This document shows, in pieces, positions 7,201 to 24,051 of a stretch of DNA of 27,376 bases. This stretch comes from a virus (Duplodnaviria > Caudoviricetes). Location of the stretch: the IMG/VR virus record IMGVR_UViG_3300037991_004325, positions 1 to 27,376 of that record; one strand, given 5' to 3'. The number at the start of each line of letters is the position of its first letter. Within the stretch, counting starts at the first letter, position 1. The position numbers and the translations under genes are program-made. Below the pieces are notes generated by a model. It saw nothing but the letters and a program-made list of their open reading frames with translations, was not told the origin of the DNA and searched no databases.

Positions 7201-9718
7201 CGATACTATTTGTAGAAATGTCCGCATCAACTCCGGCTACATTTGTCCATTTCGTTCCATCATAAGAAAGGAAATCTCCAGCATTTGGAGTGGTGTCTAG
7301 AATTTCTCGGCCGATGCCGTACGGAACTGTGTACGTTGTGCCCGTGTATTTAGCGCGACCTCTAGTAACTCGAAGGTCAAGCATGAACCCTCGCCAGAAG
7401 TTGTGAGTTAAAACATTCTGATCGTTGAGGTCATTGCGACCTAAAATAAACTCTTGATCACCTGTATAAATTACATCAGCTGTTGTGTAGTCAACTCTGT
7501 ATCCATCAAGCCATAATGCGTGCAAATCGGCTTCTTTGGTTACTGCGACGTGATGCCAATTGTTAAGGCTAACAGAGTTATTCGGAGTGCTCAGCTGAAA
7601 GCCGCTTTGACCTTGCGCACCAACCACATTCCATGACAATGATCCGTCTTGCAAAAGCCTGAGTGTGTAACCACCATTTCCTTGAGTTGCTACTTTTCTA
7701 AAGATGCATCTATCTTCTAGCAAAAGAGATGGATAGAAAAATATTTCTATACAGCCGTCACCATCGACAACTTGCCAGCTGACATCATTAGCCCAGGACA
7801 CATAATTGTCTAAGCGTTGCTGTAAAGTCCAGTTTGAAGACGGCCCCCAGTATCTTGCGATAGGATATAAATAATTTTCAGGGCTAAAAAATTCGTATGT
7901 TGTGCCTACGTTAGCATTTGCTTTTGGCGTCGAAACTGCTAATACAGTCGAAACATCTTCACTCGTTAAATAGTTTAAGTTTGGATTAGCAACCAACATA
8001 TATGCGGCTACTAATTTATTATTTGTAATACCTAGATCTCCGAATTGCACGTCTTGCATATCGTCCAGCCTGAACCGCTGGTCAAGCGTGCTAGCAACCC
8101 AGTTTGTGCCGTCCCACAGCAGCCCATATCCCGTCCCCGCGCCGTAAGGGGCTACGTCACCTAACTGGCCAATGCTGTAATCATTGAGATTAAGCAGAGG
8201 GAATCCCATCCTGAAGCCCCCAGTTTCTGCGATCAGGGCTAAGCCAGGGGATGCGTCCGCCGTGCTGACATTTTCAAGCGCACCCAGCGAGCCTTCATAA
8301 GCAACTAAATGCAGTGGGTCTGTAACACCCAGAGGCTTTTCCTGTGCATTCTCAGCAGGCGGGATAAAGGCTTGTGCATTATTCAAGCCATCCATCAATA
8401 TCCGAACGTATGCAAATTTTTCGTTCTCTATTTTGTCTGTGCTTTCTCTAACTTTTAAGCATACATACGGCAAGTTATCGACAACCGTATATCTCCCTAA
8501 ATTTTCTTCATCACATGGCTGACAGGATAGGTCTGGAAATGCCTCGGGAGTTGCTCCAAAATTCTGATAATAGTCAAACTTGGCGTACCATAATTCTGGA
8601 TATTGTGCTTTCCAGTTTCCCTCTGATGGATTCCAGACTAATGTCTTTCCATAGTCTCTATCGTTAGTATTGACATCCCTTAAATCGTTGATGCCGGCAG
8701 ACGATAAATCCGGGGCGGGTCCAGCTACTGGCTGCCACTCTGATGCGGCAGAGTTCCACGCTAAAACATATCCTTCTCCGGGGATAATATCCGAAACGTC
8801 TCCAATGTTTTGAAGTTGTTGATTTCCAAATTCTGTTCTTACATGTTCTAATGTAGTAAGTGAAAATAAACTTTCATCTGTGCCGTCATGCAAGTTTGGA
8901 ATTGTATTCGAAGTGTATCGAATTTTTGTCGCATTTTCAATATAAATATCGTCAGGTGATTTAATAAATATATTTTTTTGGTAGGCATTTTGTCCGAGAT
9001 ATGTTTTCTTTAAATTTATCTCCATATCCTCATCGGCCATTAACCTTAGGCCAGAGCCTGCAATTATTCTTTGACTTGTAGAAATGTCTTGGCTGTTATA
9101 TGCAAATCTTAGTTCTGATATTTTTGCCCTGTTGAAAGTTACAACATTTCCGGCTTGAACTGTCCCATCAATAATATCAAACGTGGGTGCTACTGGTGCC
9201 CAGTAGTATTTATTATTTGGGTAATCGTATTGATACCATAAAAGATCATTTGCGTCAGGGGTATATTTAGGATTATTTGCTGAAGCGTAGAACCCATAAT
9301 TGACATCACCAGCGTCATTGAGCGATGGGATTAGTCCAGCATTGCCTCCATACGCGGCCGGTGGTCTTACAACCCACTTTGTGCCATCCCACGTCAGCAG
9401 CCAACCGGCTTCGCCTGTATCGAGTTCCCCAGCAATGCCATCCTCAATGTCAACGTCTCCAATATCAGACAGGTCACACGACAGCAGTTCTTCTTTATCC
9501 CATGGGATTGCAATTCCACCAATATCTGTAGAAATCTGAGTAATATCACCATTAGTGTCTAATGTCCACAGTTCTGCAAACTGTTCGCCACGTCGAATTA
9601 CAAGCTCACCAGCCTCGATCGAGCCGCCCTCAATATCGCTAGCGCGGATTGCATTTTTAAAATCCTCAAGTTCCTCAACTTGAGAATGCTTGAGGATGAT
9701 CCGATCTAGCTGAGCCAC
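4211..9718 (-). CDS. Long modular tail fibre with two LamG/concanavalin A-like domains (1835 aa)
   Basis: About 15 'l-x-d-l-x-D-V...G-x-x-L-x-W-d-G-x-x-W' repeats. LamG-like domains at about 7345-7830 (IEIFFYP...WHHVAVTK...LWLDG...LDLRVTRG) and about 4725-5245 (FEFLIK...WNHVYL...LYING...LDDLRIT). Mtd_N-like motifs at both termini; ends in EIDGGLY. GTG start. Confidence 0.88.
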   Translation of the reverse strand: MAQLDRIILKHSQVEELEDFKNAIRASDIEGGSIEAGELVIRRGEQFAELWTLDTNGDITQISTDIGGIAIPWDKEELLSCDLSDIGDVDIEDGIAGELDTGEAGWLLTWDGTKWVVRPPAAYGGNAGLIPSLNDAGDVNYGFYASANNPKYTPDANDLLWYQYDYPNNKYYWAPVAPTFDIIDGTVQAGNVVTFNRAKISELRFAYNSQDISTSQRIIAGSGLRLMADEDMEINLKKTYLGQNAYQKNIFIKSPDDIYIENATKIRYTSNTIPNLHDGTDESLFSLTTLEHVRTEFGNQQLQNIGDVSDIIPGEGYVLAWNSAASEWQPVAGPAPDLSSAGINDLRDVNTNDRDYGKTLVWNPSEGNWKAQYPELWYAKFDYYQNFGATPEAFPDLSCQPCDEENLGRYTVVDNLPYVCLKVRESTDKIENEKFAYVRILMDGLNNAQAFIPPAENAQEKPLGVTDPLHLVAYEGSLGALENVSTADASPGLALIAETGGFRMGFPLLNLNDYSIGQLGDVAPYGAGTGYGLLWDGTNWVASTLDQRFRLDDMQDVQFGDLGITNNKLVAAYMLVANPNLNYLTSEDVSTVLAVSTPKANANVGTTYEFFSPENYLYPIARYWGPSSNWTLQQRLDNYVSWANDVSWQVVDGDGCIEIFFYPSLLLEDRCIFRKVATQGNGGYTLRLLQDGSLSWNVVGAQGQSGFQLSTPNNSVSLNNWHHVAVTKEADLHALWLDGYRVDYTTADVIYTGDQEFILGRNDLNDQNVLTHNFWRGFMLDLRVTRGRAKYTGTTYTVPYGIGREILDTTPNAGDFLSYDGTKWTNVAGVDADISTNSIDELLDVDVTSNNPGTGDALVWTGNKWEPGIPGVGSTWGLDDFSDVSTFYQVGSGYVRFDQATTLYFSDLYKNIFDQGSISSPGYATSINQFDGSWTCSDEWNTFGLGDGTSPSDDDAKFWTNQSTFVRVGLQGNVEIKGEKITVLNRFSDCYFIPRTFHGPSLHYQGCPNRAPSSTNLHNGDFEGGVIPETYIPCWGVLEDEINKLLAFGSLGSIGNVDAASPAIGQALAWDGTSWKPSSTISADISNNGIGDLRDVSPNASDNTVIEGYALLWNGSVWAPAPIAQDMFLFDTVEEKIVTNTFPIPGPRLYDTRDQEITTNQQEHENVIIGFAGKGERGFEFTAYEPTQNGFNPRKAYMFGGVGVGSPTFITSGLIGSTGSFLEIAAGHVRVADNGALNNGIDGFRIAKDWKIVYEDVDLVWDDFTNAQVPNKESILEYLNVQFNDLDITQYPLEDLENVNTAGKAIGYALMWDGSQWIASNSVAANIGSSSIGGLVDIDKTDNSDAVTNDGDITFDIGQLKTSRPAQTGGGLDLPSSNAAGLIGWSSNQEGAPYLKNTTGPLDTSSIEVLGDEVGVHAANGIIYGRQPSLGDNTVPSWLQVRQQIIRSAVDYQALFLLKAENFLESSYNWPLQVSVVTSPNPVYDSKFSGSYSIHFRKFNQDKIEWTANDGCPETWAAGRIWSFEFLIKTDSQTTGDGRDEYIIAPAEPDSYQSTGLHIYLKGLDRSELGVYFGTRILTNYGADHISGSLIEDSWNHVYLAQEGGGLIRLYINGIEVGDHLQTGAWQLTGGMAIGGRTLPDAFDEQGYLTAQLDDLRITDGWLPYITAAGSVPVPVDPLPLGDVANVFGRLSMLEDVNTTATAPVHGDALIWNAVQGYWEPGAEPAADISASSIGELTDVNVANSVADNGDVLAWDSSASEFQRTKIDGNGGVRPLVARTVAPGFVPSAGSLFAGELFLNMADKKLYALDASGTAFNFATDGTYSDVTEIDGGLY
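4420..9480 (-). repeat. Dispersed protein-level fibre repeat (about 15 copies) inside the 1835-aa gene
   Basis: Examples: LQNIGDVSDIIPGEGYVLAWNSAASEW; IGQLGDVAPYGAGTGYGLLWDGTNW; IDELLDVDVTSNNPGTGDALVWTGNKW; LGSIGNVDAASPAIGQALAWDGTSW; LEDLENVNTAGKAIGYALMWDGSQW. Diverged at the DNA level. Confidence 0.85.
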
Positions 9719-9760: not shown

Positions 9761-10321
9761 TTACCAAAGGCCAATAGGGCAGCTGCTTTTTGCGATTCTA
9801 GTTTTTGCCGGCAGGAAACAACCACACTTGCCGCACCTTTGATCTTTACCTTTAAACGGGCAGGTATTGCATACATCCATTCTGGCTTTCGGATCCGTAA
9901 CACCACCTGATGCCAAATCCTTAGCTGACTTGATTAGCCCTTTAGCCATATCAAGTGGTGATGCCTCGATTTTCCTTTTTATTTCAGCTACATCATTGAC
10001 CTTTGTCATAGCAATTTTTTCATCTTCGATTTTTCTTTGCAGTGCCAACTCTTCCATTTCAATTCTTTTGGCTTCAACCTCCTTTTGTTTTTGCTTGATT
10101 ATTTCTGATCTCTCAATCAACCATAGCCTGCTGTAACTTTTGACTTGTGCGCTTATCTCAGCTTGCTCAGGATGTTCAGGCCATTGGCCTAGATACCCGA
10201 TGCACCAAATGTAGTTGCGCGGCAGATTGCTAAGGTCAAATGTCTTTTCTAGAAGGCAACAGGCACCTGATGGATCTGTCCCGTCTGCTGCCCGAAAAAC
10301 CGTCCAGTCTGGTGAGCGCAT
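9761..10321 (-). CDS. Coiled-coil protein with C-terminal CxxC...CxxCGC...K...CP-x-G-x-W (DUF6171-like) metal-binding domain
   Basis: C-terminus is RMDVCNTCPFKGKDQRCGKCGCFLPAKTRIAKSSCPIGLW, preceded by a K/E-rich helix. The ORF track starts at GTG 10375. ATG 10321 (186 aa) is preferred because it removes the overlap with the giant gene, follows purine-rich GAGAAAGG, and lies 18 nt after the conserved intergenic motif. Confidence 0.8.
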   Translation of the reverse strand: MRSPDWTVFRAADGTDPSGACCLLEKTFDLSNLPRNYIWCIGYLGQWPEHPEQAEISAQVKSYSRLWLIERSEIIKQKQKEVEAKRIEMEELALQRKIEDEKIAMTKVNDVAEIKRKIEASPLDMAKGLIKSAKDLASGGVTDPKARMDVCNTCPFKGKDQRCGKCGCFLPAKTRIAKSSCPIGLW

Positions 10322-10353: not shown

Positions 10354-13300
10354 CTATGCCCGTCCAGGGGGCCACGTATCCTTGTCATCTAAGTATTCAT
10401 TTAGTTCAATATTTTCTCTAAGCTCTTCCATTAGTTCTTTAGCATCTTTTGTTCCCTGAGGTCTCTTGACTGGCCCCGTAGCGTATGGGGGTGTTGAATT
10501 TTCGTCTTTTTCGATTAATTCATCTACTTCCTCTTGCTTCGCATCTCTCTCATCTTCTGTATTGGCTTTCAAAGTTTCAAGCTCTTGTTTTTGTCCTTCT
10601 GCATTGTAAATTACTTCTCTTATTTGCTCGATCTGCTCGCAGATATTTTTGCATTCTCTTTCATGATCACCACGCGAAATACGATTTAATAACCCACAAT
10701 TCATTTCACCGTTTTCATTTACCTTACAGCAGATTTTGTTTCCAAAGGAATCTTCGGCAGGCGCATAGCCTTCTTTGCATTTGTCTGGATTCCATACAAG
10801 TAAGCCAGCTCTTTCGTTTAAAGACTGTAATTGCGCTTCGGCGTTTTCAAGTGAATTTTTAGCGTTCTGCATGTCTGAGAAAATACTTTCTCTGTCATCG
10901 ACCCAGCTACCTTTTACACTCTTTGCTTCTCTCAAAGCCAGTTCTGCCTGAGTCCAGACAGGCCTTTGCTCATCAACATCCGTTATCGCATTTTCTAGTT
11001 GTTTGTTAAATGATATGCACTCACCATAACCCTCTCTTTCATATTGCGATTGTGTGTAACCTTCTGGAAGATCGCATGAATTAATTTCGATCCGACGCTC
11101 ACCTAATTTAACTTCCTCTTCATATACGAGCATATCGCTTACAACCCCTAAATAATCTTCTTGTGCTACGGATAGATCAGCCTCTTTGTTTGCTAATTCG
11201 TTTTCAAGAATTACATATTCACTGCTTAATGGATCGGTTTCAGATATAATAACTTTAAGTTCAGTAATTTCTACCTGCAATCTTGATACAGACAAATATA
11301 AAGTATTAGCTGCTGACTGTGCGCTTAAAAGATTATTTTTTGCTGTGTCATTGATTAATTCTTGCTGCTCAATCTGTGATTCCTTATCGGCTTGCGTCTG
11401 CTGAAGCTCTGTCAGTTTCTCGTCTGCTGCATCAAATGCTTCTTGCTTTGCTTCTATGTCAGAGTCAATGCCCGACTGACTACCATCAGTTTGTTTAAAC
11501 AAATTTTCTAATCTGAGCACTTCATTCATTGCATTATTTCTTACTTGGATTGCTATATCTATTTGAGACTCAAGTTGTTCCAAAAGGGTTTCAAGATTTT
11601 CAATTTCTTTTTCTTGATCTTCTATAAACTTTTCTACAAATTCAACGTAACCTTCAAGCCATGCAATTAATGCATTTAACTCTTCTATCTCTCTTACCAT
11701 TTTTAAAATAACTAGATCTTGAGAACCCGCTTCAAAGTAAGTGTCAAAGACTGCGCCGCATCCTTCATTTCCTGGCGTACATCCATAAACTAATTCAGCC
11801 TTATTACATATCGGATGCCCGGCCACTAGATCCTCAAACGTAACCATTGTGTTAAATCCAAGGGCACCCGCAGCATCGTTATCATGCAAGCACTCAGCTC
11901 TTTGTGGCCACTTTTGTCCAGGGTATCGGCCTATCTTTACCCAGTTTTGATAATCAGTCGTAAAATAAGTTCCAGACTCTGATAGGTCTACTTCATAAAC
12001 CCAGCCCTGCCTATATTGCTTGCCTTCCCAATACTCGTTAATGCAAGCCATCAGGCCGCCAATGCAATACTCCCAATATCTGTTTTGATAAGCCACACCT
12101 GGCCGATCTTCATAGTAAAGACTTTGCGAACAATCGTATTTCACGCATGTATCCTTTTCATGTTGATAGTCCCATCTGAACTTACCATTCATTTCTTCCT
12201 CGCCTGTCCTGTCTGGTGAATCAGGCGAGATAATATTTTTCAAAACCTTGCCATACAATTGAGCGTTATATGCTTTGCCAGGCGTATTGTCGTATTCAGT
12301 CACGCACATGTAGCAAGTTCCATAGGTGCATTCTGAATCATCTCTACAAGTGCCGCCCATACAGCAACCGCATACACGCACTTGCTCGTAGTAAACACTG
12401 TCAGGATTTTGTACTTTGGCTAAATCATTTTGCAGGTCTCTAAGTAGCTGCTCCTGTTGCTGAATATATCTTCTGCTTTGTCTAACCATATACCTGCTAT
12501 GTTCAAGCTGTCTATACTTAACATCTAATTGCAGCTGAGCATCATTCGGCAAGTCTTCTAGTAATTCATTTATATCTTCCTCGTTTTGATCAAGCAATTC
12601 ATCCAGTTCATCGCTTCTTTCCTGTAAGGCGTCTCTTTCCGTTTCCGACTGAGTTAATTGCTGCTCAAGATTTTCAAGATCTAGATGTTTTTCGTTAAAC
12701 AGCGCGAGTTCAATTTTTTTCTCAAGTACCTTAACTTTTTCAGTGGCTTCATACAACTCTTCGTCAGTCTCTTTTATTTCTTCGTTATAACTTTCTCTTA
12801 GTTGCTCCAGTTGATTAGATACATTCTGATTGTATCCATTGTTTATTGTTTGCTGAACAATTGCTGATTCGTATGCAGCAGATGCATTTTGCAAGTTTAT
12901 TAATCTTTCTTGATAGTTGTCTTCAAAATTGTCTAATGAATCTTGCGTTTGTCTTATTTTCTGCTCTACTCTCATTACCTCTGCTGACGGACCTACGTCT
13001 ATTCCTGGCCCTTGCTTTTCCCACTTAAAGCATGATTCACAATCTGCCCATGCACCGCACTGGATGCCTGTCTCCGTGCAAGTACATGGCCTGCAATCCC
13101 CAGACTGTTCTTCACCGTCAGCGCTGACAATTGTTAGCGTGCTGCTAGGCCATGCGTTTTTGACCTCTCTAACTGCATTGTCGTAATTTTCTTGCGAGCT
13201 GTAATAATCTCGAATAGTGTTTGGATCTTCATTTAAATAATATGTGATTTCCCATGGGCCTTTTGCTTTGCCTTTGCTTTCAATCCAGGTTTCATATTTA

Positions 13301-16300
13301 GAACGGCAATCGCCTTGTTTGCTGCAGCAATAGCAGAAATATGGGTTTCCTCCAATCTCGCCTAAGTCTTGGCCATCAGCAGCCCCTATGCGCCCAGGAT
13401 TGCTGTCTTCACTGCCGCACTCGGTAATGCATGTATAGTTTTTGCACTTTTGATTACCAGGGCATTGAGCATCAGTTTCGCATTGAGCGCAAATGTCCTT
13501 TTTATAATCTAGACACTTTTCTGTTCTGTTATAAGCAAGCGTACCATCAGCAAGTGCTGTTGTTGATTGCAGGCATTTGAGTTTTTGATTTTTAAGATCT
13601 GCAATAGAATTGAACCCTTGGCAGCAGTCTTTAGTTCGATCCAGAATGCAAGCGCACTGAGTAGGCGGCAATACCAATTCGCCTGTGATCGGATCAATGT
13701 ATTCCTCACCCGACTCAAACGACCCTTCAATCGCACACGGTCCATGTCGTTTCTGACAGGTCGGACATTCCTTACCTTCAGAAAGCGAACCGCCGCATGG
13801 ACACTTTGCCTCGCAGTCTTCTTTGCACTTGCCAAGTTTATTGAGACTGCCACCATCGCAATATTCGCATTCAGTGCAATCGTCATCTGATCTACAGCCA
13901 CATTCCTCGGGTGACTCTTTCCATGGGTGCTCTTTACATATTTTTCTAGTTATGTAATCTACGCCGGTAGGTATCCCGTAGCCGGTGCTAGACGTAATTT
14001 CACCTTCACCATAAATGCCGCAACATGCATCGCTTCTATATGTTTTTTCATAGCAATCAGCACATGGCCCGCAATCGTCATCATTTACACATTCATCTGT
14101 TTCCGGTATATCGTCACACTTGCATTCTTTTGTTTCAGAAACAAAGCATGCATCCTTCAGTAAATTGTCAATCTGGAATGGTAGTTTTTCGCCACCTTCC
14201 ACGCATCTCAACTCTCCAGTGACTGCATCAATTACTTCGCAAGCGCGGTAATGTCTTTCATCTCCTAACTCTTCAGGTATGATTTGATTTTCTTCGCTAT
14301 CGTAAAGTTCGCAAAATACTCTATCGATCGTGCAGCCGTCAGGTGATCCATATTTTGTATTTGGATGCTCTTCTACTGATATACATTGGCCAGTGTCTCG
14401 ATCACAACATTGGCCAGTTTTCTTGCAAGGGTTCTTTTCGTCGCAACCACATGGCTGACAATATCCATCATCACCACAGCATTTATTCTTTGCTTCGCAA
14501 TTATCTTGTTCTTGTTTGCCGGCATTGTCAGTCGAGCCAGCAGTGGTTGATGTTTTCTCTTCGCATCTAAATTTACATACACCATCGCAGCATTTTTTAT
14601 TGCCCCCGCAGTGTCCATCGTTGCAACACTCGTTTTCTCCGTAGCCCTTTCTGATGCAGCCACCGTCGCAACAGAATTCACCTGTTGCGCATTCGGGTTC
14701 AGCGACAGTGCTAAGAGTTACTCCTGCACGTAGGCAATACCCGCCAATCGTATCCTCTGCACTGCAATAAAAGCCAGGCGGGCAATTGCCTTCATCGCCG
14801 CATAAGAACACGTCAGAGCCCGCCCCACACTGCCACACGCACTGATTGTGAATACACGTCTTTCCTTGCTGGCAAGTGTCAGCGCTCCCACATTCACCTT
14901 CTGTGCATTTCCCTTCATCACATACCTCACCCTCGTCACAGTCACTATTAGTAAAGCAAGTTACGCCAACCTCAATGCAGGTGTTGTTGCTACATTGATA
15001 TTCTTTTCCGTCTTGTAAAGCCTGCTCTGCGCAATCACTGTCATAAGTGCATCTGCCATCAGTTTGTCTGCAATATCCAAATCCGCCGCATACAGTTCCA
15101 TCCTCACAGTCCGAAGATGTTATGCAACTGTTTCTGCATACTTCGCAATTTGTGATATGTACTTTCATTCTTTCTTGCAATACGTCATAAACCTGCTCTA
15201 CGTTGCAAACTTCATCAACCTTTCTGCATGGTGCCCCAGTTGGACACTGCTCTGGACACGAATGACAAGTGTCCCCGTCCAGAAGCCCTGTGAAACAATC
15301 GCCAGTGCTTAGCCCCGTATAACAAGGTGTGTCACATTTACCCTCATTGCAAAGAGTCCCTTCCCCGAATTGCCTTACACAATCGCTATTAGTAATGCAT
15401 TCAATACACTCACCCTTTTTGCATCTTCCCCCACCGCAGTCAAAGTCTGTTTGGCACGTCTCTATACATACGCCACTGCCGCCACAAAAGCCGCAGTTGC
15501 AGTCTTGCGTCGTATTGCAAGGCATAGGTTTGCAGACCCCTCCAGGGGCGCAGAAGTCTGCGCAGCTTTCGCATCCAATAACAGCGGGGTCAAATGCTGC
15601 ATAACTTTCATCCGTTGGTTCCTCGTAACAAATCAGAGCTCCATCTCTGCCCATTGGGGCGCATACTTCTGGATACGTGCATTCAAAGTCAGCCAAGCAT
15701 TCGATAGGCTTTGGCTCGCATGTATCTGTATTACATTCTTGACCTGCGGGGCAATCTCTGTTTTTTGCTTCAATTAGTTGTTCTTCATAGTAATCTACTT
15801 GAGCTTGCTCTTCTGCTGTTAGCGGTGGATAAAGAGAGAGTATGTGATCAATTTGAGCCTGTAAGTGTTGAATCTTTTGGTCTCTTTCTGGGCTTTGTTC
15901 CTCTTGCTCTATTACAGCTTTTTTGTAATTCATCTCATCTAGTCTGGCCTGATCATTTGCATCAGGAACTGACTTTACTTTAATGCCAAAAATTATATCT
16001 TCTATTTCTTTTACTCGATCGTTTTCAGGATCACAGGTTGCGCCTACAAACTGGCAACCCCCTTCAATGCATTGATGGTATTCAGGACAAGATGTGCATT
16101 TTCCATCCCTGCACGTTTCATTAAATGCACAGTCATTGTCACCTGCACACACAACAATATTTTCATTACACTTATCAACGCATTGCTCACTTTTGCAGAC
16201 TTGCGATGGGTTGCAATCACTATTTTCTTTACAGCCTCTTGTGCATTGTCCAGCTTCACAATAAAAACCTTCATCACAGTCTTGACTACCAATGCAGGAA

Positions 16301-19014
16301 AGCGGGCCGCCCGGCGTGCATGCATAAGCGCATAGCCCCTTTACATAAGGCTTTTGCTCGCGCATTGTTCTCATTTGATCCAATATCGCCTGCACTGCGT
16401 TTTGTGGCGCATTTGTTGCTAGTGCTAGCTTTAGATCTTGTTCTAAGAGTTGATACTTTTCTTGCTCACGATCGTTAAATGGTTCTCTTCGCCTTTCGCC
16501 ATCTTCATCTTTATTGTCACATACTTTGGAGCCAGGGCAGTCTTCATCAAAATCACATTCACCACAAACATTACCTACAAGGCACGATCCGCACGCCTCT
16601 TCCTCGCAATCTAAATCACTATCACAAACAAACGGTTTACAGTAACCATTTTGATCGCAGAATTCATAACACTCACAGCCCTTGTGTCCACCCTCTGAAG
16701 TTGTTCCTTTGTTTACTTGAGCACATATCCCATCACTATTGCAGAATCCTGAGTCACCAAGTATAGCCACGCAAACTTCATTGCTATCGCACTTAAGTTC
16801 GCATGAATTGTTTACACAAATCTCATCTTCCCCACATTGACTATCAAAGCGACATCCAAAGGTGCAAGTATGGTTTTTGCATATCTCCCCTGATTCACAT
16901 CCATCGTCATTGTCACATGTTGTTGGTGGTATTGAGCAACTTTCATCGACGCATGTTTCGCCCGCCTCGCAGTCAGCATCTGAATTGCAATAAGCCGTAC
17001 AAAGTCCAACCTCACTAAAGCATTCTTCATCTGGATAAAATTCACATGGAGCAATAACGCCATTTGGTGCTTGCACATAATTTTTGCTACAGCGCATCAA
17101 TGTGTTGCTTCCTGGCTCAATCAATGAGCTGCAATCTGCGTCTTGGAAACAACCCTCTAAACAATATTGCTCATCGCCGCAATACTGGCCAGGGGAACAG
17201 TCGGCCGTCGATATGCACGGCACCAATGGATCGCAGATAAATCCACAGCAGCCACCCTCTAGGCACAGTTGATTGCCCTGCTCTGTTGCGCAGTCAAGAT
17301 CATTGCTGCATTTTTTGCTGCATCTTCCATCAGCATTACAGCAGGCTCCATCGGGGCATGGGTTGTCATCGCTGCAGCCCTCGATGCAGACTCCATCCTC
17401 ACAAATACTGCAAGACGGGCACTGCTCATCAACCTTGCAAATAACAACTTCACATGTTCCAAATTGATTACATGTATCACCGCAATCGCATCCAATCCGA
17501 CTGTCAGCTGGCTCCGTTGGATCTGCCTGTTTATGCATGCAGAATCCTTCTACACACAAATCTCCATCGCTACATTGAGACGATGTTGAACAGGTCTGCT
17601 CACATCTATGGTCAATGCATGTATCCTTTAGGTTTGATTTAATGCATGCCTCATCATCAGGGCATGCAGCTATGCATTGTGGGTCTCTTGGGCATAGTTC
17701 AATCCAATTTGGATTAAAACATCCGTCACCAGTACAAGTGCAATTCCCTATCGGTGGGCACTCATTAACGCATGCAGCATCTTTCGAGCATGCCCGCGTG
17801 CAATCATTGTTCGTTTCACAACCACCCGCGCATCTCCCGTCTTCATTGCAATACTCACCATCACTGCAATCTGATGATGTTACACATATTTGTCCCGCGC
17901 TTTCACATTTCCCATTCTCGCAACTTTCGTCTACGGAGCAATCTGCTGTTTCAGTACATGCTTTATAGCACGTTCTACTTTCTGGATCACATACGGCTTG
18001 CCTATTATATTCATCAACCCTTTGTCTTAAATCAGCAATATCATTTGTCAGTTGTTCAATTCTATCTATGCTTTGCTGTAATTCTAATTCTGTCGCAGCT
18101 ACGTCCTGTGCTGTTGTTGAACCATTTGTTAGACCAGCTTGATATTGTCTAAGATCGTTTTCAATAATAGCTCTGTTTTCCGCTTCGGCTCGTACATCTT
18201 CGAGCATGCTTAAAATGTCGAGCTCCCCTTGTTCGTCTCTGCATTGCCCGAACCTGCACCCTTCTATGCATTGATATTGAGCACCCTCTGGATCACTGTT
18301 TACAAAATATTCTCGTTCTCCGCAATATTCGCGATCGAAACAATCGCTATCTGTTAAGCAATATCTTACAGGATCGCATGGATATACGCATTCACAATTT
18401 TCACACAATGTGTTGGCTTGTGCATCACCTGCAGCGTTTTGACTCCGTGGATTGCAGTCGCTGTCTTCTTTGCAACCATCGGTGCAAAATCCTGACCTTA
18501 GATCGCAAACTTGGCATTCTCCGCAGTCACTATTAACCGTACATGTCAGAGAACAATCACCATCTATGCACTCATAGTGCTGTCGATCATTAGGTGGGCA
18601 AGGGCACTCCCAGGTGGCGCCGCATGGTCTGTTTTCATCTCTTGGCACGCAGGTATTATTTTCGCACCAATCGCATGGATCGCATTCATACCATCCATAG
18701 CAAACATCATTAAATAAACAATCTGTCCCATTTGCGCATTTTATTTTTTCGGATAGCTCAGATCCTGGCTGTCCCGTATCCCAAGTTTCTGCCCATACAA
18801 CTTCACCTGTTTCTGGATCAAAATTTCCAGCAAGGTTTGTCCCCTCTGCAATGGAGACTGCACCCATCTGTGTATATTTCTTTCCGCTTGCAGTTCTCTT
18901 GTCTGCGTTTGAATAAATGCCTCTTGCCTGAGAACTTGCCCGCTGCTCTTCCTCAAGCTCGCGGGATGCCGCAGCCTGAAGCTCTATAGCTCTTAGCAGC
19001 TCATCTGAGGCCAA
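10354..19014 (-). CDS. Giant cysteine-rich repeat / coiled-coil protein (2886 aa), probably tail-associated
   Basis: Uninterrupted 8.66-kb ORF with a TTG start. Dozens of C-x4-[DEQ]C-x2-G-x2-C-x2-G-x-C modules, acidic composition, heptad-rich Cys-free inserts and a long C-terminal coiled coil. No N-terminal hydrophobic signal peptide or TM segment visible. Function is inferred from position only. Confidence 0.9.
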   Translation of the reverse strand: MASDELLRAIELQAAASRELEEEQRASSQARGIYSNADKRTASGKKYTQMGAVSIAEGTNLAGNFDPETGEVVWAETWDTGQPGSELSEKIKCANGTDCLFNDVCYGWYECDPCDWCENNTCVPRDENRPCGATWECPCPPNDRQHYECIDGDCSLTCTVNSDCGECQVCDLRSGFCTDGCKEDSDCNPRSQNAAGDAQANTLCENCECVYPCDPVRYCLTDSDCFDREYCGEREYFVNSDPEGAQYQCIEGCRFGQCRDEQGELDILSMLEDVRAEAENRAIIENDLRQYQAGLTNGSTTAQDVAATELELQQSIDRIEQLTNDIADLRQRVDEYNRQAVCDPESRTCYKACTETADCSVDESCENGKCESAGQICVTSSDCSDGEYCNEDGRCAGGCETNNDCTRACSKDAACVNECPPIGNCTCTGDGCFNPNWIELCPRDPQCIAACPDDEACIKSNLKDTCIDHRCEQTCSTSSQCSDGDLCVEGFCMHKQADPTEPADSRIGCDCGDTCNQFGTCEVVICKVDEQCPSCSICEDGVCIEGCSDDNPCPDGACCNADGRCSKKCSNDLDCATEQGNQLCLEGGCCGFICDPLVPCISTADCSPGQYCGDEQYCLEGCFQDADCSSLIEPGSNTLMRCSKNYVQAPNGVIAPCEFYPDEECFSEVGLCTAYCNSDADCEAGETCVDESCSIPPTTCDNDDGCESGEICKNHTCTFGCRFDSQCGEDEICVNNSCELKCDSNEVCVAILGDSGFCNSDGICAQVNKGTTSEGGHKGCECYEFCDQNGYCKPFVCDSDLDCEEEACGSCLVGNVCGECDFDEDCPGSKVCDNKDEDGERRREPFNDREQEKYQLLEQDLKLALATNAPQNAVQAILDQMRTMREQKPYVKGLCAYACTPGGPLSCIGSQDCDEGFYCEAGQCTRGCKENSDCNPSQVCKSEQCVDKCNENIVVCAGDNDCAFNETCRDGKCTSCPEYHQCIEGGCQFVGATCDPENDRVKEIEDIIFGIKVKSVPDANDQARLDEMNYKKAVIEQEEQSPERDQKIQHLQAQIDHILSLYPPLTAEEQAQVDYYEEQLIEAKNRDCPAGQECNTDTCEPKPIECLADFECTYPEVCAPMGRDGALICYEEPTDESYAAFDPAVIGCESCADFCAPGGVCKPMPCNTTQDCNCGFCGGSGVCIETCQTDFDCGGGRCKKGECIECITNSDCVRQFGEGTLCNEGKCDTPCYTGLSTGDCFTGLLDGDTCHSCPEQCPTGAPCRKVDEVCNVEQVYDVLQERMKVHITNCEVCRNSCITSSDCEDGTVCGGFGYCRQTDGRCTYDSDCAEQALQDGKEYQCSNNTCIEVGVTCFTNSDCDEGEVCDEGKCTEGECGSADTCQQGKTCIHNQCVWQCGAGSDVFLCGDEGNCPPGFYCSAEDTIGGYCLRAGVTLSTVAEPECATGEFCCDGGCIRKGYGENECCNDGHCGGNKKCCDGVCKFRCEEKTSTTAGSTDNAGKQEQDNCEAKNKCCGDDGYCQPCGCDEKNPCKKTGQCCDRDTGQCISVEEHPNTKYGSPDGCTIDRVFCELYDSEENQIIPEELGDERHYRACEVIDAVTGELRCVEGGEKLPFQIDNLLKDACFVSETKECKCDDIPETDECVNDDDCGPCADCYEKTYRSDACCGIYGEGEITSSTGYGIPTGVDYITRKICKEHPWKESPEECGCRSDDDCTECEYCDGGSLNKLGKCKEDCEAKCPCGGSLSEGKECPTCQKRHGPCAIEGSFESGEEYIDPITGELVLPPTQCACILDRTKDCCQGFNSIADLKNQKLKCLQSTTALADGTLAYNRTEKCLDYKKDICAQCETDAQCPGNQKCKNYTCITECGSEDSNPGRIGAADGQDLGEIGGNPYFCYCCSKQGDCRSKYETWIESKGKAKGPWEITYYLNEDPNTIRDYYSSQENYDNAVREVKNAWPSSTLTIVSADGEEQSGDCRPCTCTETGIQCGAWADCESCFKWEKQGPGIDVGPSAEVMRVEQKIRQTQDSLDNFEDNYQERLINLQNASAAYESAIVQQTINNGYNQNVSNQLEQLRESYNEEIKETDEELYEATEKVKVLEKKIELALFNEKHLDLENLEQQLTQSETERDALQERSDELDELLDQNEEDINELLEDLPNDAQLQLDVKYRQLEHSRYMVRQSRRYIQQQEQLLRDLQNDLAKVQNPDSVYYEQVRVCGCCMGGTCRDDSECTYGTCYMCVTEYDNTPGKAYNAQLYGKVLKNIISPDSPDRTGEEEMNGKFRWDYQHEKDTCVKYDCSQSLYYEDRPGVAYQNRYWEYCIGGLMACINEYWEGKQYRQGWVYEVDLSESGTYFTTDYQNWVKIGRYPGQKWPQRAECLHDNDAAGALGFNTMVTFEDLVAGHPICNKAELVYGCTPGNEGCGAVFDTYFEAGSQDLVILKMVREIEELNALIAWLEGYVEFVEKFIEDQEKEIENLETLLEQLESQIDIAIQVRNNAMNEVLRLENLFKQTDGSQSGIDSDIEAKQEAFDAADEKLTELQQTQADKESQIEQQELINDTAKNNLLSAQSAANTLYLSVSRLQVEITELKVIISETDPLSSEYVILENELANKEADLSVAQEDYLGVVSDMLVYEEEVKLGERRIEINSCDLPEGYTQSQYEREGYGECISFNKQLENAITDVDEQRPVWTQAELALREAKSVKGSWVDDRESIFSDMQNAKNSLENAEAQLQSLNERAGLLVWNPDKCKEGYAPAEDSFGNKICCKVNENGEMNCGLLNRISRGDHERECKNICEQIEQIREVIYNAEGQKQELETLKANTEDERDAKQEEVDELIEKDENSTPPYATGPVKRPQGTKDAKELMEELRENIELNEYLDDKDTWPPGRA
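13030..18738 (-). repeat. Tandem Cys-rich protein modules of about 20-30 aa
   Basis: Examples: CTETADCSVDESCENGKC, CVTSSDCSDGEYCNEDGRC, CSTSSQCSDGDLCVEGFC, CDNDDGCESGEICKNHTC, CFTNSDCDEGEVCDEGKC, CETDAQCPGNQKCKNYTC. Hand count gives 29 Cys in the first ~166 aa of the array. Confidence 0.92.
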
Positions 19015-19017
19015 TGG

Positions 19018-19245
19018 TTAGCTCTCAACCTCATACCACTTCGATAGATCCTCAGAGCCTACAAACAGCCTGCATTTGTTAGCAGTTGACGGAACGGCCA
19101 CAATCTGCCCCGGAAAAAGCGGCACATTGTTAGGGGGCGCGTCTAGATTAGGATATTTTGTCCGCCAACTAATTGCAGTATCTGTTGCAAATCGATGTGG
19201 CGAGGTATTTTTGATCTGTGGCTTATCAAACACCTTTAACCACAC
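19018..19245 (-). CDS. Small hypothetical protein, possible fibre adaptor (75 aa)
   Basis: Fills the gap in the operon and has a GTG start after the intergenic motif. PLFPGQIVAV...RLFVG...KWYEV loosely resembles the Mtd_N-like l-x-x-G-E-l...k-l-y pattern. Confidence 0.7.
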   Translation of the reverse strand: MWLKVFDKPQIKNTSPHRFATDTAISWRTKYPNLDAPPNNVPLFPGQIVAVPSTANKCRLFVGSEDLSKWYEVES

Positions 19246-19255
19246 GGCTGCGCGT

Positions 19256-19265
19256 GTAGGCTTCC
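19256..19265 (-). promoter_or_regulatory. Conserved intergenic motif GGAAGCCTAC (candidate late promoter)
   Basis: 2 nt after the stop at 19268 and 10 nt before GTG 19245; would drive the 75-aa gene and the giant Cys-rich gene. Confidence 0.6.
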
Positions 19266-19267
19266 AA

Positions 19268-19543
19268 TCAAGCCCAGTTTACAAAGTAACCTTGGCTTGT
19301 TCTTCTAAGGTTTACTTTTGCTCCAAATTGTTTGCATTTTCTTGCTAAAACAATACATTCATACGTTCGTCCTTTGTACTCTACAAGCCCTTTTCCGGCT
19401 CTGTTATATCCATGCCAATATCCAGTCACGTCAACCCTTTCCCTTTCCTCTGTGATTTCGTTTCTAAGTTTTATTAGCGTATCTGTCCGTGCTAAATCTT
19501 GCACTAACCCTAATTCGGTTTCAAGTTCGCGGAATGTAGACAT
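19268..19543 (-). CDS. Small hypothetical protein, helix plus small beta-barrel (91 aa)
   Basis: TAATG overlap with the upstream gene. An amphipathic N-terminal helix is followed by GYWHGY...GLVEYKGRTY...GAKVNLR (OB-like pattern, tentative). Confidence 0.75.
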   Translation of the reverse strand: MSTFRELETELGLVQDLARTDTLIKLRNEITEERERVDVTGYWHGYNRAGKGLVEYKGRTYECIVLARKCKQFGAKVNLRRTSQGYFVNWA

Positions 19544-19980
19544 TAAGCCGCAATAAATACACCAAACAAAGTAAAGTCAAAATAAAATATAGCAGCTTGC
19601 CCATCTGACAATGTTGCTCTACCAGCCAGCTTGACAGTGCAAACTACGTTCTGTTCGTCAGGGCTTAAAAGCACTACATGGCTAAACCTGAACGACTGAG
19701 CCGGTTGATTGTTGTGGACAAACGTAGCTGCTTTTCTTGCAAACGGAACCGACCCCTCATCGTATAGGCCTATGTCTGCAGTGGTAAATCCAATTTGCTG
19801 TCGCGTATATCCGCCCAGGCCGCTTGTAACTTCATTGGCAATCACTGTCGCCAACGGATCGTCAGCGTCAAACGTAGACCCTGGAGCGTCTACCAGCGCG
19901 ACCTTGAATGATTGGTTGACGTAAGACTCTGTTGCGATCCTTTGAAGTTCGCTTGCTCCTACTCTTGCGGCTATAGGCAT
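19543..19980 (-). CDS. Putative tail structural/fibre-attachment protein (145 aa)
   Basis: The pattern FKVALV...EVTSGLGGYTRQ...ATF...HVVL...TLSDGQ...F is typical of small phage tail beta-sandwich proteins. ATG follows AAGATAGGTC. Confidence 0.75.
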   Translation of the reverse strand: MPIAARVGASELQRIATESYVNQSFKVALVDAPGSTFDADDPLATVIANEVTSGLGGYTRQQIGFTTADIGLYDEGSVPFARKAATFVHNNQPAQSFRFSHVVLLSPDEQNVVCTVKLAGRATLSDGQAAIFYFDFTLFGVFIAA

Positions 19981-19989
19981 GACCTATCT

Positions 19990-20328
19990 TTAACCTGTAA
20001 CAGCAATTGACCCGCCGTAATCCGCTTGTCCCACGGCGTAATAATACAAAGTATTAGGCGCTCCTACCGCTACCTCGATTTGAATAAATCGGCTTGTGGC
20101 AGAAGAAAAACCAGACAGATATGAGGTTCTGTTGACCTCAATATTATTCAGCCAATAGCTTACGCCTGTGCTATACGCTGATCCACCATCATTCTCGCCA
20201 TCATCAGTTTCTGACAGGCTAAGAGGTGCTGTGCTGTTGCTGCTGTTGTTTTGATCAAAGCGGTAGATATTACCGCGTGTCATAGCCAGAGAGGCCTGAG
20301 CTACGTTGTCAATATAGAAAACGGCCAT
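19990..20328 (-). CDS. Stand-alone cupredoxin-like virion domain lacking copper ligands (112 aa)
   Basis: RGNIYRFDQ.NSSN..APL.LS.T.DG...GGS.YSTGV...APNTLYYYAVGQADYGGSI matches a pattern I recognise from aquatic phage virion proteins (usually HP...LYYYC-x2-H-x2-MGG), but with A, A, Q and Y at the ligand positions. Confidence 0.75.
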   Translation of the reverse strand: MAVFYIDNVAQASLAMTRGNIYRFDQNNSSNSTAPLSLSETDDGENDGGSAYSTGVSYWLNNIEVNRTSYLSGFSSATSRFIQIEVAVGAPNTLYYYAVGQADYGGSIAVTG

Positions 20329-20355
20329 TAGCGGCCCCTAAGGCATTCGACTGCG

Positions 20356-20365
20356 TTATGTTTCC
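20356..20365 (-). promoter_or_regulatory. Conserved intergenic motif GGAAACATAA (candidate late promoter)
   Basis: 2 nt after the stop at 20368 and 27 nt before ATG 20328. Confidence 0.55.
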
Positions 20366-20367
20366 GA

Positions 20368-21756
20368 TCAGGTAACTGTAATGGATCCTCTCATTGATGA
20401 ATGATATTGGCAATTATAGTAATACGTTCCAGCTTGACTAAACCTTACTTTAACTTGTCCGCTTTGGGTTCCATTATTATCTAGCTGCATGGCCCAGGTC
20501 GGCAGTGTGCTCGAAGCGCAGCCGCCAGTCGTTGCGGTGCTACAAATCCAGAACGGGTGAGAGTAAGCGTTGACATTGAAAGTCATTAGTTGCCCAACCG
20601 TTGCCGTCAGACTTGGATTGTCTGTGAAGTATTGATCAGGCCCATAGAAGCGATATGCGCCTGGCTGGTTTGTCACCGTATAAGCAACTGGCGCGTCATA
20701 GACTTCTACGTCAAAGATTTCTAAAACCTCAACGTCAAATGTCTGATCTGCCGCCACTGGACCTGTTGTCACGGTGAACGTTTGATAGCTCGGCGGTGCG
20801 CTCACTGATACATCGAAGATTGCGTTAGGCGTCTCAGGTCCAACGGTCACAACAAACGGCGCTGGCCCTGCTGTGACTGTGAATACCTCATCGACTAGCA
20901 GAACGTTGAATGTCTGGTTTGGTACTGACGGCCCAACGATGACAGTGAATACCTGATCGGCACTAGGCAAAGGTGGCGCATCAGGTCCGCCAATGCTTAC
21001 ATCAAAGATTTGATCTGGTGTGTCTGGCGGATTTGGCCCAACCGTCACCACGTAGGTTTGATCTGGCTGTTCAATCTCTGCTGTCACCTCGTAGGTGGTA
21101 ATGACCTTGACCTCGTAGACAGTATCGGCTTGTCCCGCCTCCCTCGTAACAGTAAAGATCTGATCGGGAGTTTCTGGCCCAACTAATACCTCAAGAATTT
21201 GATCAGCCGGCTTGGCAAATACTGAAACGATAAATGGTGGCTCAGCTGTTACTACGTCATGAAGCGTAATGGCTTTTACATCAAAGATTTGATCAGGTGG
21301 GACCGGGCCAACCTCTGTTGCGAATGTTTGATCAGGCGCGGGGGCCAGTGACAGCACGGTAAAGACTTGATTTGCAGCCGGCGCCCCAGTCGTTACCTGA
21401 AAAACATAATCAGGATTAGGTATTGAAGTCGAATCAAATAAATCGGCGTTAATTACAAATTCAGTGCTTTGAAGCAAGGAATCAGCCGAGTCTAATGGAG
21501 TTCCATATACATCCAACCCTAAAATATTTGCTTCACCGCTTACCTTTTCACCTGATATTTCTATCTGTATATTTGGCTCGAATGTATTGATCAATGTATC
21601 ATCCCACCAGTCCGTAACGCCTAGCCCATCGTCTCCATTTCCAGTCCTAACGGTTATCCTCAACCTTGGCTCATTTGCAAAATATTGCTCTACATCCCAG
21701 ACCCTTCCGGTCGTAATCTTTGTTTCGTTGCTTATCGACGGCGGGTTGTAAGTCAT
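20368..21756 (-). CDS. Repeat-stalk protein with C-terminal blue-copper (cupredoxin) domain (462 aa)
   Basis: Central PDQ-x-F-x-V-x-v-G-P repeats. C-terminal ~100 aa reads NPSLTATVGQLMTFNV...HPFWI...F..AGTYYYNCQYHSSMRGSITV, with His, Cys, His and Met in type-1 Cu arrangement. TAATG overlap with the hub gene. Confidence 0.85.
   Translation of the reverse strand: MTYNPPSISNETKITTGRVWDVEQYFANEPRLRITVRTGNGDDGLGVTDWWDDTLINTFEPNIQIEISGEKVSGEANILGLDVYGTPLDSADSLLQSTEFVINADLFDSTSIPNPDYVFQVTTGAPAANQVFTVLSLAPAPDQTFATEVGPVPPDQIFDVKAITLHDVVTAEPPFIVSVFAKPADQILEVLVGPETPDQIFTVTREAGQADTVYEVKVITTYEVTAEIEQPDQTYVVTVGPNPPDTPDQIFDVSIGGPDAPPLPSADQVFTVIVGPSVPNQTFNVLLVDEVFTVTAGPAPFVVTVGPETPNAIFDVSVSAPPSYQTFTVTTGPVAADQTFDVEVLEIFDVEVYDAPVAYTVTNQPGAYRFYGPDQYFTDNPSLTATVGQLMTFNVNAYSHPFWICSTATTGGCASSTLPTWAMQLDNNGTQSGQVKVRFSQAGTYYYNCQYHSSMRGSITVT
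20680..21417 (-). repeat. Tandem ~7-14 aa repeats, consensus (P/A)DQ-x-F-x-V-x-(V/T)-G-P
   Basis: Examples: PDQTFATEVGP, PDQIFDVKA, ADQILEVLVGP, PDQIFTVT, PDQTYVVTVGP, PDQIFDVSIGGP, ADQVFTVIVGP, PNQTFNVL, ADQTFDVEV. About 20 units including short ones. The DNA string catcaaagatttgatc recurs near 21000 and 21279. Confidence 0.88.
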
Positions 21757-23624: not shown

Positions 23625-23625
23625 C

Positions 23626-24021
23626 TCACACCTCAGTCAGGCTAAAGCTAACCCTATACAAAGGTGCTCCGTTGCCTACCAGCTCAATGTTGACGGCTTC
23701 AGTAAATACTGTATTTGCTGTAAAACTATTCCTTCCAGTAATTTGATCAGTCAAACTAATAATTGCAGCGCTTCCTCCCGCTCTTGCTGTATCCCAATCT
23801 TCATATAAATCCTGCAACTCAAAGGCGTCTGCTTTATTCATAAGCAAATCAACAGCCCATAAACGGCGTGCCGCTCGACTGCTGCCAGACTGAATTGCTG
23901 TTCCTGTCGTCGAAAAATTTAATGTCGCTGTGTCTACATAGGTTCGCTGAGCACCACCACCGCCGAACCGATCCAGCGTGATGTTGTAACTACCAAAGGA
24001 CAACTGTAGTGCAGGGGCCAT
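23626..24021 (-). CDS. Putative distal tail (Dit-like) protein (131 aa)
   Basis: Immediately downstream of the tape measure gene. Has a W-x-V-x-L strand, a helix ending LY-x-x-W and a terminal VSFSLTEV strand, typical of Dit/lambda gpM-like proteins. Confidence 0.65.
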   Translation of the reverse strand: MAPALQLSFGSYNITLDRFGGGGAQRTYVDTATLNFSTTGTAIQSGSSRAARRLWAVDLLMNKADAFELQDLYEDWDTARAGGSAAIISLTDQITGRNSFTANTVFTEAVNIELVGNGAPLYRVSFSLTEV

Positions 24022-24038
24022 CGGACTTTTCGACCGTC

Positions 24039-24048
24039 TCAGGGTTCC
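24039..24048 (-). promoter_or_regulatory. Conserved intergenic motif GGAACCCTGA (candidate late promoter)
   Basis: 3 nt after the tape measure stop and 17 nt before ATG 24021. Confidence 0.55.
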
Positions 24049-24051
24049 GGT

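Follow-up and report, generated by a model that had tools for sequence, protein, structure and literature searches.

A giant cysteine-rich protein in the tail module of a P-SS2-like phage: probably a disulfide-built virion protein

Functional disulfides have been reported in the structural proteins of cyanophage Pam3 (PMC9942802), Agrobacterium phage Milano (PMC10491603) and, in tail tube protein gp39, a siphovirus (PMC13576161). According to these reports the bonds are few per subunit, largely between subunits and set in ordinary folds, and dithiothreitol (DTT) detaches the fibres of Pam3 and weakens Milano (PMC9942802, PMC10491603). Drosophila Dumpy, with its DPY modules (PF21164, PDB 1OIG), and avian CREMP are secreted animal proteins in which four-cysteine β-hairpin modules are strung into long filaments; the DPY consensus is reported as Cx5Cx5Cx4C with two disulfides (PMC12723725). 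Here we analyse 27,376 nucleotides of viral DNA (Caudoviricetes; IMG/VR record IMGVR_UViG_3300037991_004325, positions 1 to 27,376; this whole stretch is the window below), in which one tail-module gene encodes a protein of 2,886 residues. Cysteine makes up 9.7% of it, against 2.4% for the structural proteins of Milano. A member of its family was reported from virions of cyanophage P-SS2 in 2009 and left unexplained, and we found no description of its cysteine architecture in the open-access literature; the likeness to Dumpy and CREMP filaments proposed below is drawn by analogy. The protein is real, conserved, virion-linked and probably disulfide-built.

The closest described relative is P-SS2 ORF084 (gp084, ACT65646.1; 2,612 aa, 282 cysteines). 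The two proteins are collinear over residues 1–2629 at 25–35% identity (tblastn E 2e-102), have the same architecture and lie between the same neighbours, orthologues of ORF082/083 on one side and ORF085/086 on the other. ORF084 differs in being 274 residues shorter, in carrying its inserts elsewhere and in lacking the C-terminal six-cysteine knot. Eleven consecutive window genes, from the tape measure to the fibre genes, match P-SS2 genes that are arranged likewise, and we therefore regard a marine picocyanobacterium as the likely host. Matches among 50,697 annotated phage records came from three records, all of them P-SS2. Table 2 of the P-SS2 paper (PMC2784084, Sullivan et al. 2009) lists ORF084 as an ‘unknown structural protein’; purified virions gave 43 of its peptides on average, close to the means for ORF079 (43) and ORF086 (45). 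The virion proteins listed include ORF082 and ORF083 as well, and no peptides came from ORF085. The main text, in which the word ‘cysteine’ is absent, gives ORF084 no function. All virion evidence comes from this orthologue, and on its strength the window protein is very likely a virion protein. An earlier note, made from the window's letters alone, had suggested an undescribed type of virion appendage. Its placement in the virion is supported by ORF084; ‘undescribed’ was too strong, given that the full-length family is present, though uncharacterised, in a cultured phage and that disulfide-bonded virions (Pam3, Milano) are in print.

The family is small and tied to one kind of tail module. 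Searching 5.8 billion proteins yielded 16 full-length sequences, that of the window among them (2,666–3,224 aa, 274–348 cysteines), and wherever a full-length locus could be read it proved to be a tail module of the P-SS2 kind, as the position seen in the window had suggested. The order 91-aa gene, 75-aa gene, giant gene, DUF6171 gene, LamG fibre gene is kept in all six loci showing both flanks (P-SS2 and L006–L010), and the two truncated loci retain its upstream part. Five other retrieved loci have only the module type in common and contain no tail genes. One carrier, G002, is a provirus by its IMG/VR class. When one genome for each prokaryote species was scanned with two patterns, only two loci emerged, both module-level matches in Myxococcota. 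A profile of residues 2200–2440 found 12 proteins among 1.84 billion representatives: ten family members or fragments and two unrelated weak matches. The scan and the restriction of this profile to the family led us to reject a cellular origin of the gene.

The reading frame itself is real. It starts with TTG, lies on the same (minus) strand as every other long gene in the window and agrees with its neighbours in codon-position GC. A second assembly, L009, is 99.9% identical to the window over 21,253 nt without gaps. Contigs from four marine metagenome runs, the best-covering of which may be the source sample, are free of indels and joints inside the gene, and one spans positions 11513–24000; the listed runs carrying the gene include no RNA dataset. 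Of 31 single-base differences listed in the gene, 29 are synonymous and none falls on a cysteine. The L009 identity, the spanning contigs and the synonymous variants together led us to reject a chimeric assembly, which the earlier note had named as a possible artefact, and likewise a frameshift. Promoter and terminator scans returned chance-level results only.

The count of 280 cysteines replaces an estimate by eye of about 300, and the 16–19% found in the densest segments agrees with the 17% first given for one of them. Other tail proteins of the window contain 0–2.2% cysteine, the sole exception being the DUF6171 neighbour (4.4%). The giant protein is acidic (566 D+E versus 248 K+R), and its successive cysteines are separated mainly by five residues (83 cases), then by three (35), four (34) and two (25). 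Residues 93–1998 hold 257 of them, 2215–2419 hold 15, 2647 and 2666 are a further two and 2746–2792 hold six; residues 1–92, 259–341, 833–894, 995–1087 and 2010–2202 are free of cysteine. A regular expression found 29 non-overlapping four-cysteine modules, some of them out of register, compared with a mean of 2.1 (maximum 7) in 200 local shuffles. The exact DPY spacing occurs 11 times, against 0.055 (maximum 1) in shuffles. The cysteine-rich modules account for only about two-thirds of the protein. Residues from about 2000 to 2886 are helical, and the inserts 259–341, 833–894 and 995–1087, of which the last two differ between homologues, are helical-looking. The final third is a predicted antiparallel coiled coil, which the earlier note had missed.

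An AlphaFold2 model of residues 341–833, built with 17 alignment rows, repeats a helical turn and β-hairpin (mean pLDDT 71.7, pTM 0.26), the low pTM being expected for beads along a flexible string. The model of residues 1938–2886 (pLDDT 75.3, pTM 0.31) contains a long helical hairpin, a β-rich domain at 2207–2432 and a further long coiled coil. In the PDB, the weak top rows for the modules are LRP2, NELL2, EGF-like domains and small disulfide inhibitors; these are disulfide-rich extracellular proteins and were counted in favour of disulfide-bonded modules. The C-terminal model matched generic antiparallel coiled coils only (SMC, Rad50, PrgA; Z ≤ 17), besides the viral-library entry C7F4D0, which we presume from its 2 x 1,306 residues to be P-SS2 ORF084. 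After that protein, the next entries in the viral fold library are cysteine-rich proteins of pithoviruses and their relatives. Residues 2207–2432 had no match in Pfam or among PDB sequences and no usable match in the ESM Atlas.

Twenty of the 29 modules were scanned against Pfam, giving sub-threshold matches to DUF7107, Dumpy_DPY, Dickkopf_N, EB and WAP. The best scores lie below the gathering values for DUF7107 (20.8 versus 24.6 bits; 17.2 for the whole protein), EB (18.6 versus 24.3) and Dickkopf_N (18.7 versus 25), and the best module reached 19 bits for Dumpy_DPY against a cut-off of 27, with five of the 20 at E ≤ 1. The modules are predicted to form hairpins, and we infer their cysteine pairing from the turnover described below; the likeness to Dumpy and CREMP is one of spacing and predicted fold and is no demonstration of common ancestry. 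The giant protein differs in that its modules are diverged and apparently cross-stapled, with coiled coils interleaved, and in having no signal peptide. By hydropathy it has no hydrophobic N-terminal stretch, leader or membrane segment, as the earlier note had read, and its highest 19-residue Kyte–Doolittle mean is 1.5, at cysteine-rich residue 583; the signal peptide or lipoprotein signal that defines secreted cysteine-repeat proteins is thus missing by this measure. DUF7107 (PF23416) proteins, including the Myxococcota-type L013, L016 and L017, share the module pattern C-x2-D-x-D-C and give the best single-module Pfam match, but are cellular, 570–760 aa long, apparently exported (N-terminal signals judged by eye), without nearby tail genes and similar in the repeats only. 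The resemblance to secreted eukaryotic and myxobacterial repeats noticed at the outset is borne out at this level. A different repeat type, C-D-D-G-N-x-C-T, occurs in ORFs of >3,600 and 4,290 aa (542 and 606 cysteines) on the GC-rich metagenome contigs L014 and L015.

How the cysteines change among homologues speaks to what they bind. In 12 close homologues (40–100% identity), 298 alignment columns bear cysteine, and in 263 of these it never varies. The remaining 35 can be sorted by presence and absence into 12 patterns; 11 of the patterns comprise an even count of columns (binomial P 0.003, the lineages not being independent), mostly as local pairs: 167/207, 511/535, 835/841, 1419/1434, 1449/1464, 1476/1484, 2215/2223 and 2647/2666. 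Lost cysteines are replaced by A, E, G, V, P, R or T, never by H. Totals are even in 19 of 21 full-length sequences and step by two, not only by four (274, 278, 280, 282). Three homologues jointly gain cysteines 2030 and 2184, a pair centred on residue 2107 at the predicted hairpin turn (2107–2110), and this symmetry speaks for a disulfide as well as for an antiparallel arrangement. The middle cysteines of two CxxCxxC motifs, 167 and 535, co-vary with the distant single cysteines 207 and 511 of another module and not with their neighbours, which argues against zinc knuckles. Pairwise turnover with no exchange for histidine favours disulfides over zinc or copper, and we consider it likely that disulfides dominate the protein.

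The same data bear on a metal-loaded appendage, in which Zn, Cu or Fe at about 70 four-cysteine sites per chain would fold the modules in the reducing cytoplasm and be retained in the virion. Such a protein would need no signal peptide, would make use of its 27 CxxC motifs and would fit the lack of an oxidase gene in four genomes; iron-bearing phage fibres have also been proposed in print. We nevertheless think it very unlikely: zinc repeats of four cysteines would turn over in fours with exchange for histidine, whereas here the close homologues gain and lose cysteines by twos, their totals differ by two as well as four, and the CxxCxxC cysteines vary with remote partners. The HxH motif is a mark of iron-binding tail fibres, and the giant protein contains none. 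Of the two routes first envisaged, the zinc and copper branch of metal binding is therefore disfavoured, and locking by disulfides fits the paired gains and losses. Calcium is a separate matter; an aspartate precedes the second cysteine in 26 of 83 Cx5C windows, and the frequent acidic residues of D-x-D-C motifs are compatible with calcium binding.

The coiled coils and the peptide counts bear on two further alternatives. In the first, the protein would be a conventional trimeric fibre or covalent scaffold with parallel coiled coils, many cysteines crosslinking chains or tail proteins as in Pam3 and Milano. Most phage fibres are reported to be trimeric (PMC13243795), models of a single chain always fold helices back upon themselves, and three copies are compatible with the counts when the 43 peptides of ORF084 are set against its 37 cysteine-free theoretical peptides (ratio 1.16, versus 1.34 for ORF079). 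The 2030/2184 pair suits an antiparallel hairpin, however, the adjoining tail proteins are almost free of cysteine as bonding partners, and counting all theoretical peptides gives 0.49 versus 1.34; we give this alternative very little credence. Overall, anything from one to three copies relative to ORF079 is consistent with the counts, which do not fix the copy number. In the second alternative, the protein would travel inside the virion and enter the host periplasm together with the tape measure; Dsb or VKOR enzymes of the host would oxidise it there, and its coiled coils would help to span the envelope. A periplasmic destination would account for secreted-type modules, a Synechococcus control genome has VKOR, and the long helices give a weak tape-measure match (phrog_167, E 4e-7) confined to the coiled coil. 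Yet a tape measure gene is characteristically the only long helical one preceding those of the tail tip, and here a separate one exists, a true P-SS2 ORF077 orthologue at 24052–27375. The giant protein has no transmembrane segment, its gene lies between those for small tail proteins and fibres, and its variable cysteine-free inserts would be more tolerable outside the particle. An internal or ejected protein is highly improbable.

With moderate confidence we favour a different explanation: the protein likely forms a filament on the outside of the tail end, locked by disulfides within the chain and acting as a tether or adhesin. Gene position makes an external location at the tail end probable, and leaves a role in adhesion or capture evenly balanced. 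In this proposal the 280 cysteines would pair into up to 140 intrachain disulfides, locking a string of small predicted β-hairpin modules that is followed by a predicted antiparallel coiled-coil stalk. Four-cysteine cores would be bonded 1–3 and 2–4, as in DPY modules, and extra cysteines (for example 167/207 and 511/535) would staple adjacent modules. The chain would be made reduced, with its cysteine-free end attached to small tail-tip proteins; oxygen or host enzymes, perhaps aided by the non-virion DUF6171 protein, would oxidise it at a late stage of infection or following lysis. The product would be an acidic, protease-resistant tether, by rough estimate of the order of 100 nm if extended, that could widen host capture or bear lectin-like fibres. 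A build of disulfide beads is typical of secreted animal proteins and unexpected for what is presumably a bacterial cytoplasmic product.

Attachment could involve the 91-aa upstream protein, a possibility hinted at by a similarity between its N-terminus and that of the giant protein (hhalign P 0.0033, probability 9.6%; three control families 0.34–0.65), which would make the N-terminal helix a tail anchor. This profile similarity is weak, and anchoring by the 91-aa protein is a tentative lead. Among shorter relatives of residues 1–340, we found one 475-aa match on a 3-kb contig (7,997 candidates scored).

Several observations weigh against the filament proposal. First, its outer tail-tip location and adhesive role are read from gene position, and the P-SS2 paper, in the text consulted, describes no such appendage (PMC2784084). 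Second, no disulfide has been directly observed, the P-SS2 proteomics having used DTT and iodoacetamide (PMC2784084). Third, the even parity is not replicated in more distant sets, where two of seven patterns are even among four sequences at 34–57% identity and neither of two in a pair at 50%, and where cysteine is replaced once by H and four times by D. Visible alignment shifts explain part of this failure, and local pairs (172/212, 123/148, 1744/1791) recur. Fourth, the 27 CxxC motifs make some metal sites possible. Fifth, every PDB fold match of the modules is non-significant, with no Foldseek match at E ≤ 0.001 and only three VIA chains, at Z 2.0–2.5. Finally, known oxidase genes were not found in relatives, and to pair 140 bonds correctly by air oxidation would be demanding.

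On this last point the window is a 27-kb fragment, and oxidase content was judged on the genomes of relatives. DsbA, DsbB and VKOR were found in none of four complete or near-complete genomes (P-SS2, G001, G002 and S-CBS2), with positive controls; Erv1/ALR was found in none of five, in a search where no control scored positive. Thioredoxin-like genes (CGF/WC, CxPC) are found with ribonucleotide reductase, a long way from the tail genes, and in P-SS2 and G002 (L104, L106) a thioredoxin-like domain also opens the ribonucleotide reductase frame, besides the stand-alone thioredoxin. For phages, spontaneous or host-driven oxidation has been named, in an account stating that phage machinery for this has not been described (PMC13576161); by analogy, either would be the default route for the giant protein. 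A two-state maturation would combine metal and disulfides: zinc or a partner would shield the thiols during assembly, with metal as an obligatory intermediate, and the metal would be released and the thiols oxidised at lysis, leaving a disulfide-locked virion as in the filament proposal. This would reconcile cytoplasmic assembly with pairwise turnover and could involve the CxxC, CxxCxC and CP motifs of the adjoining non-virion DUF6171 protein; nothing direct speaks against it, but DUF6171 mostly occurs without a cysteine-rich neighbour. We hold it to be decidedly unlikely.

The six-cysteine DUF6171 protein, whose gene always follows the giant gene in loci showing both sides, is the product of the only conserved non-virion gene of the block and is a candidate assembly or folding helper. 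A bolder proposal casts DUF6171 as a thiol oxidase or isomerase encoded by the phage, which would fold a single-chain, Dumpy-like tail-tip filament of ~140 disulfides inside the host; in our judgement this is unlikely. Among 23 lineages drawn from 80 of 136 loci, DUF6171 adjoins a cysteine-rich protein in 3 and has no such neighbour in the other 20. Excluding the giant family, 2 of 22 lineages have an adjoining large, unrelated cysteine-rich ORF, versus 3 of 272 small ORFs (1.1%; P 0.024, from crude gene calling), and none was flagged beside DUF6171 in six cultured phages. As a general partner of cysteine-rich proteins it was set aside as a weak lead only. The window's DUF6171 protein matched only DUF6171 phage clusters in the ESM Atlas, and we found no mention of the domain in the open-access literature. 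DUF6171 genes carry the names ‘DNA-directed RNAP’ (GQ334450.1 ORF085) and ‘RNA polymerase-like protein’ (NC_015463.1 gp034), and nothing we found supports either.

Other occurrences of the domain deserve mention. Each of three P-SS2-like genomes has a second, small DUF6171 gene ~19–22 kb upstream (L001:9154-9378, which is 53912-54043 of the P-SS2 record; G001:54224-54370; G002:60084-60224); that of P-SS2 is unannotated in GenBank and directly precedes the tape measure gene. In a separate phage lineage (L023–L027, L035, L046, L051–L053, L062 and L091), a DUF6171 protein with 12–16 cysteines adjoins a large cysteine-rich ORF (667–2,373 aa, 59–103 cysteines) for which no BLAST match to the giant protein was shown. 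At L028:6227-10156, a 702-aa Thr/Cys-rich protein (63 cysteines) is followed by a 604-aa ORF ending in DUF6171, and in L087 a 1,306-aa protein with 113 cysteines lies upstream of an ORF similar to that 604-aa one.

Related tail modules of the Synechococcus siphoviruses S-CBS2 and S-CRES3 carry shorter cysteine-rich proteins in the same place (S-CBS2 gp029, 59 cysteines in 500 aa; S-CRES3 gp92, 61 in 539), each with one or two DPY-spaced modules and with a DUF6171-like gene downstream. These proteins, annotated as hypothetical, are one-fifth as long and have no coiled coils; their similarity to the giant protein appears only with the composition filter off, and we therefore treat them as positional analogues, not shown orthologues. 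A second cysteine-bearing tail-module protein directly follows the DUF6171-like gene in each phage (S-CRES3 gp98, L103:26044-27084, 346 aa, 23 cysteines; S-CBS2 gp035, L002:27517-28242).

Among the remaining tail genes (Table 1), 21756–23624 may encode the tail-tip hub, as read from its position. P-SS2 ORF079 corresponds to two window genes (622 and 462 aa; 20368–23624), and the 462-aa product combines P-D-Q-x-F-x-V repeats with a cupredoxin-like domain at its C-terminus, which bears the motif YYYNCQYH..M. The 91-aa protein (19268–19543) combines an N-terminal helix with a small β domain, OB-like by eye; it has homologues in S-CBS2 gp026 and S-CRES3 gp89 and no match in the PDB or PHROG.

Table 1. 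Coordinates of the giant gene, its protein segments and the neighbouring genes in the window
Feature	Positions	Strand	Description
Giant Cys-rich protein gene	10354..19014	minus	2,886 aa, 280 Cys; P-SS2 ORF084 orthologue
Residues 1–92	18739..19014	minus	Cys-free N-terminal segment with conserved helix-like motif; candidate virion anchor
Residues 93–832	16519..18738	minus	Module arrays I and II, 115 Cys; Cys-free insert 259–341; predicted helical-turn/β-hairpin beads
Residues 833–1998	13021..16518	minus	Module arrays III and IV, 142 Cys; Cys-free inserts 833–894 and 995–1087
Residues 2010–2202	12409..12987	minus	Predicted antiparallel helical hairpin, turn near 2107–2110
Residues 2207–2432	11719..12396	minus	Family-specific β-rich domain, 15 Cys
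Residues 2433–2886	10357..11718	minus	Long predicted coiled coil; six-Cys knot 2746–2792; conserved C-terminal helix ending W-x-P
DUF6171-domain gene	9761..10321	minus	Likely ATG at 10321, 186 aa; P-SS2 ORF085 orthologue
Downstream fibre genes	1965..9718	minus	1,835-aa LamG-containing protein (P-SS2 ORF086 orthologue) and 748-aa fibre-like protein
Small upstream genes (75 aa, 91 aa)	19018..19543	minus	Orthologues of virion proteins P-SS2 ORF083 and ORF082
Upstream tail genes	19543..27375	minus	Tape measure 24052–27375 (P-SS2 ORF077); orthologues of ORF078–081

The orthologue in P-SS2, a cultured phage with a cultured host, makes a direct test possible. How phages make disulfides is put to an extreme test by a virion protein in which up to 140 of them seemingly have to be paired correctly. 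If the filament proposal holds, it would add to phage appendages a new architecture, in which two-disulfide hairpins are strung together as they are in extracellular filaments of animals, and would give a first functional lead for DUF6171. Should DUF6171 prove to be the enzyme that folds the filament, it would be the first bacteriophage oxidative-folding machinery, and one employed again next to unrelated cysteine-rich tail proteins of other phage lineages.

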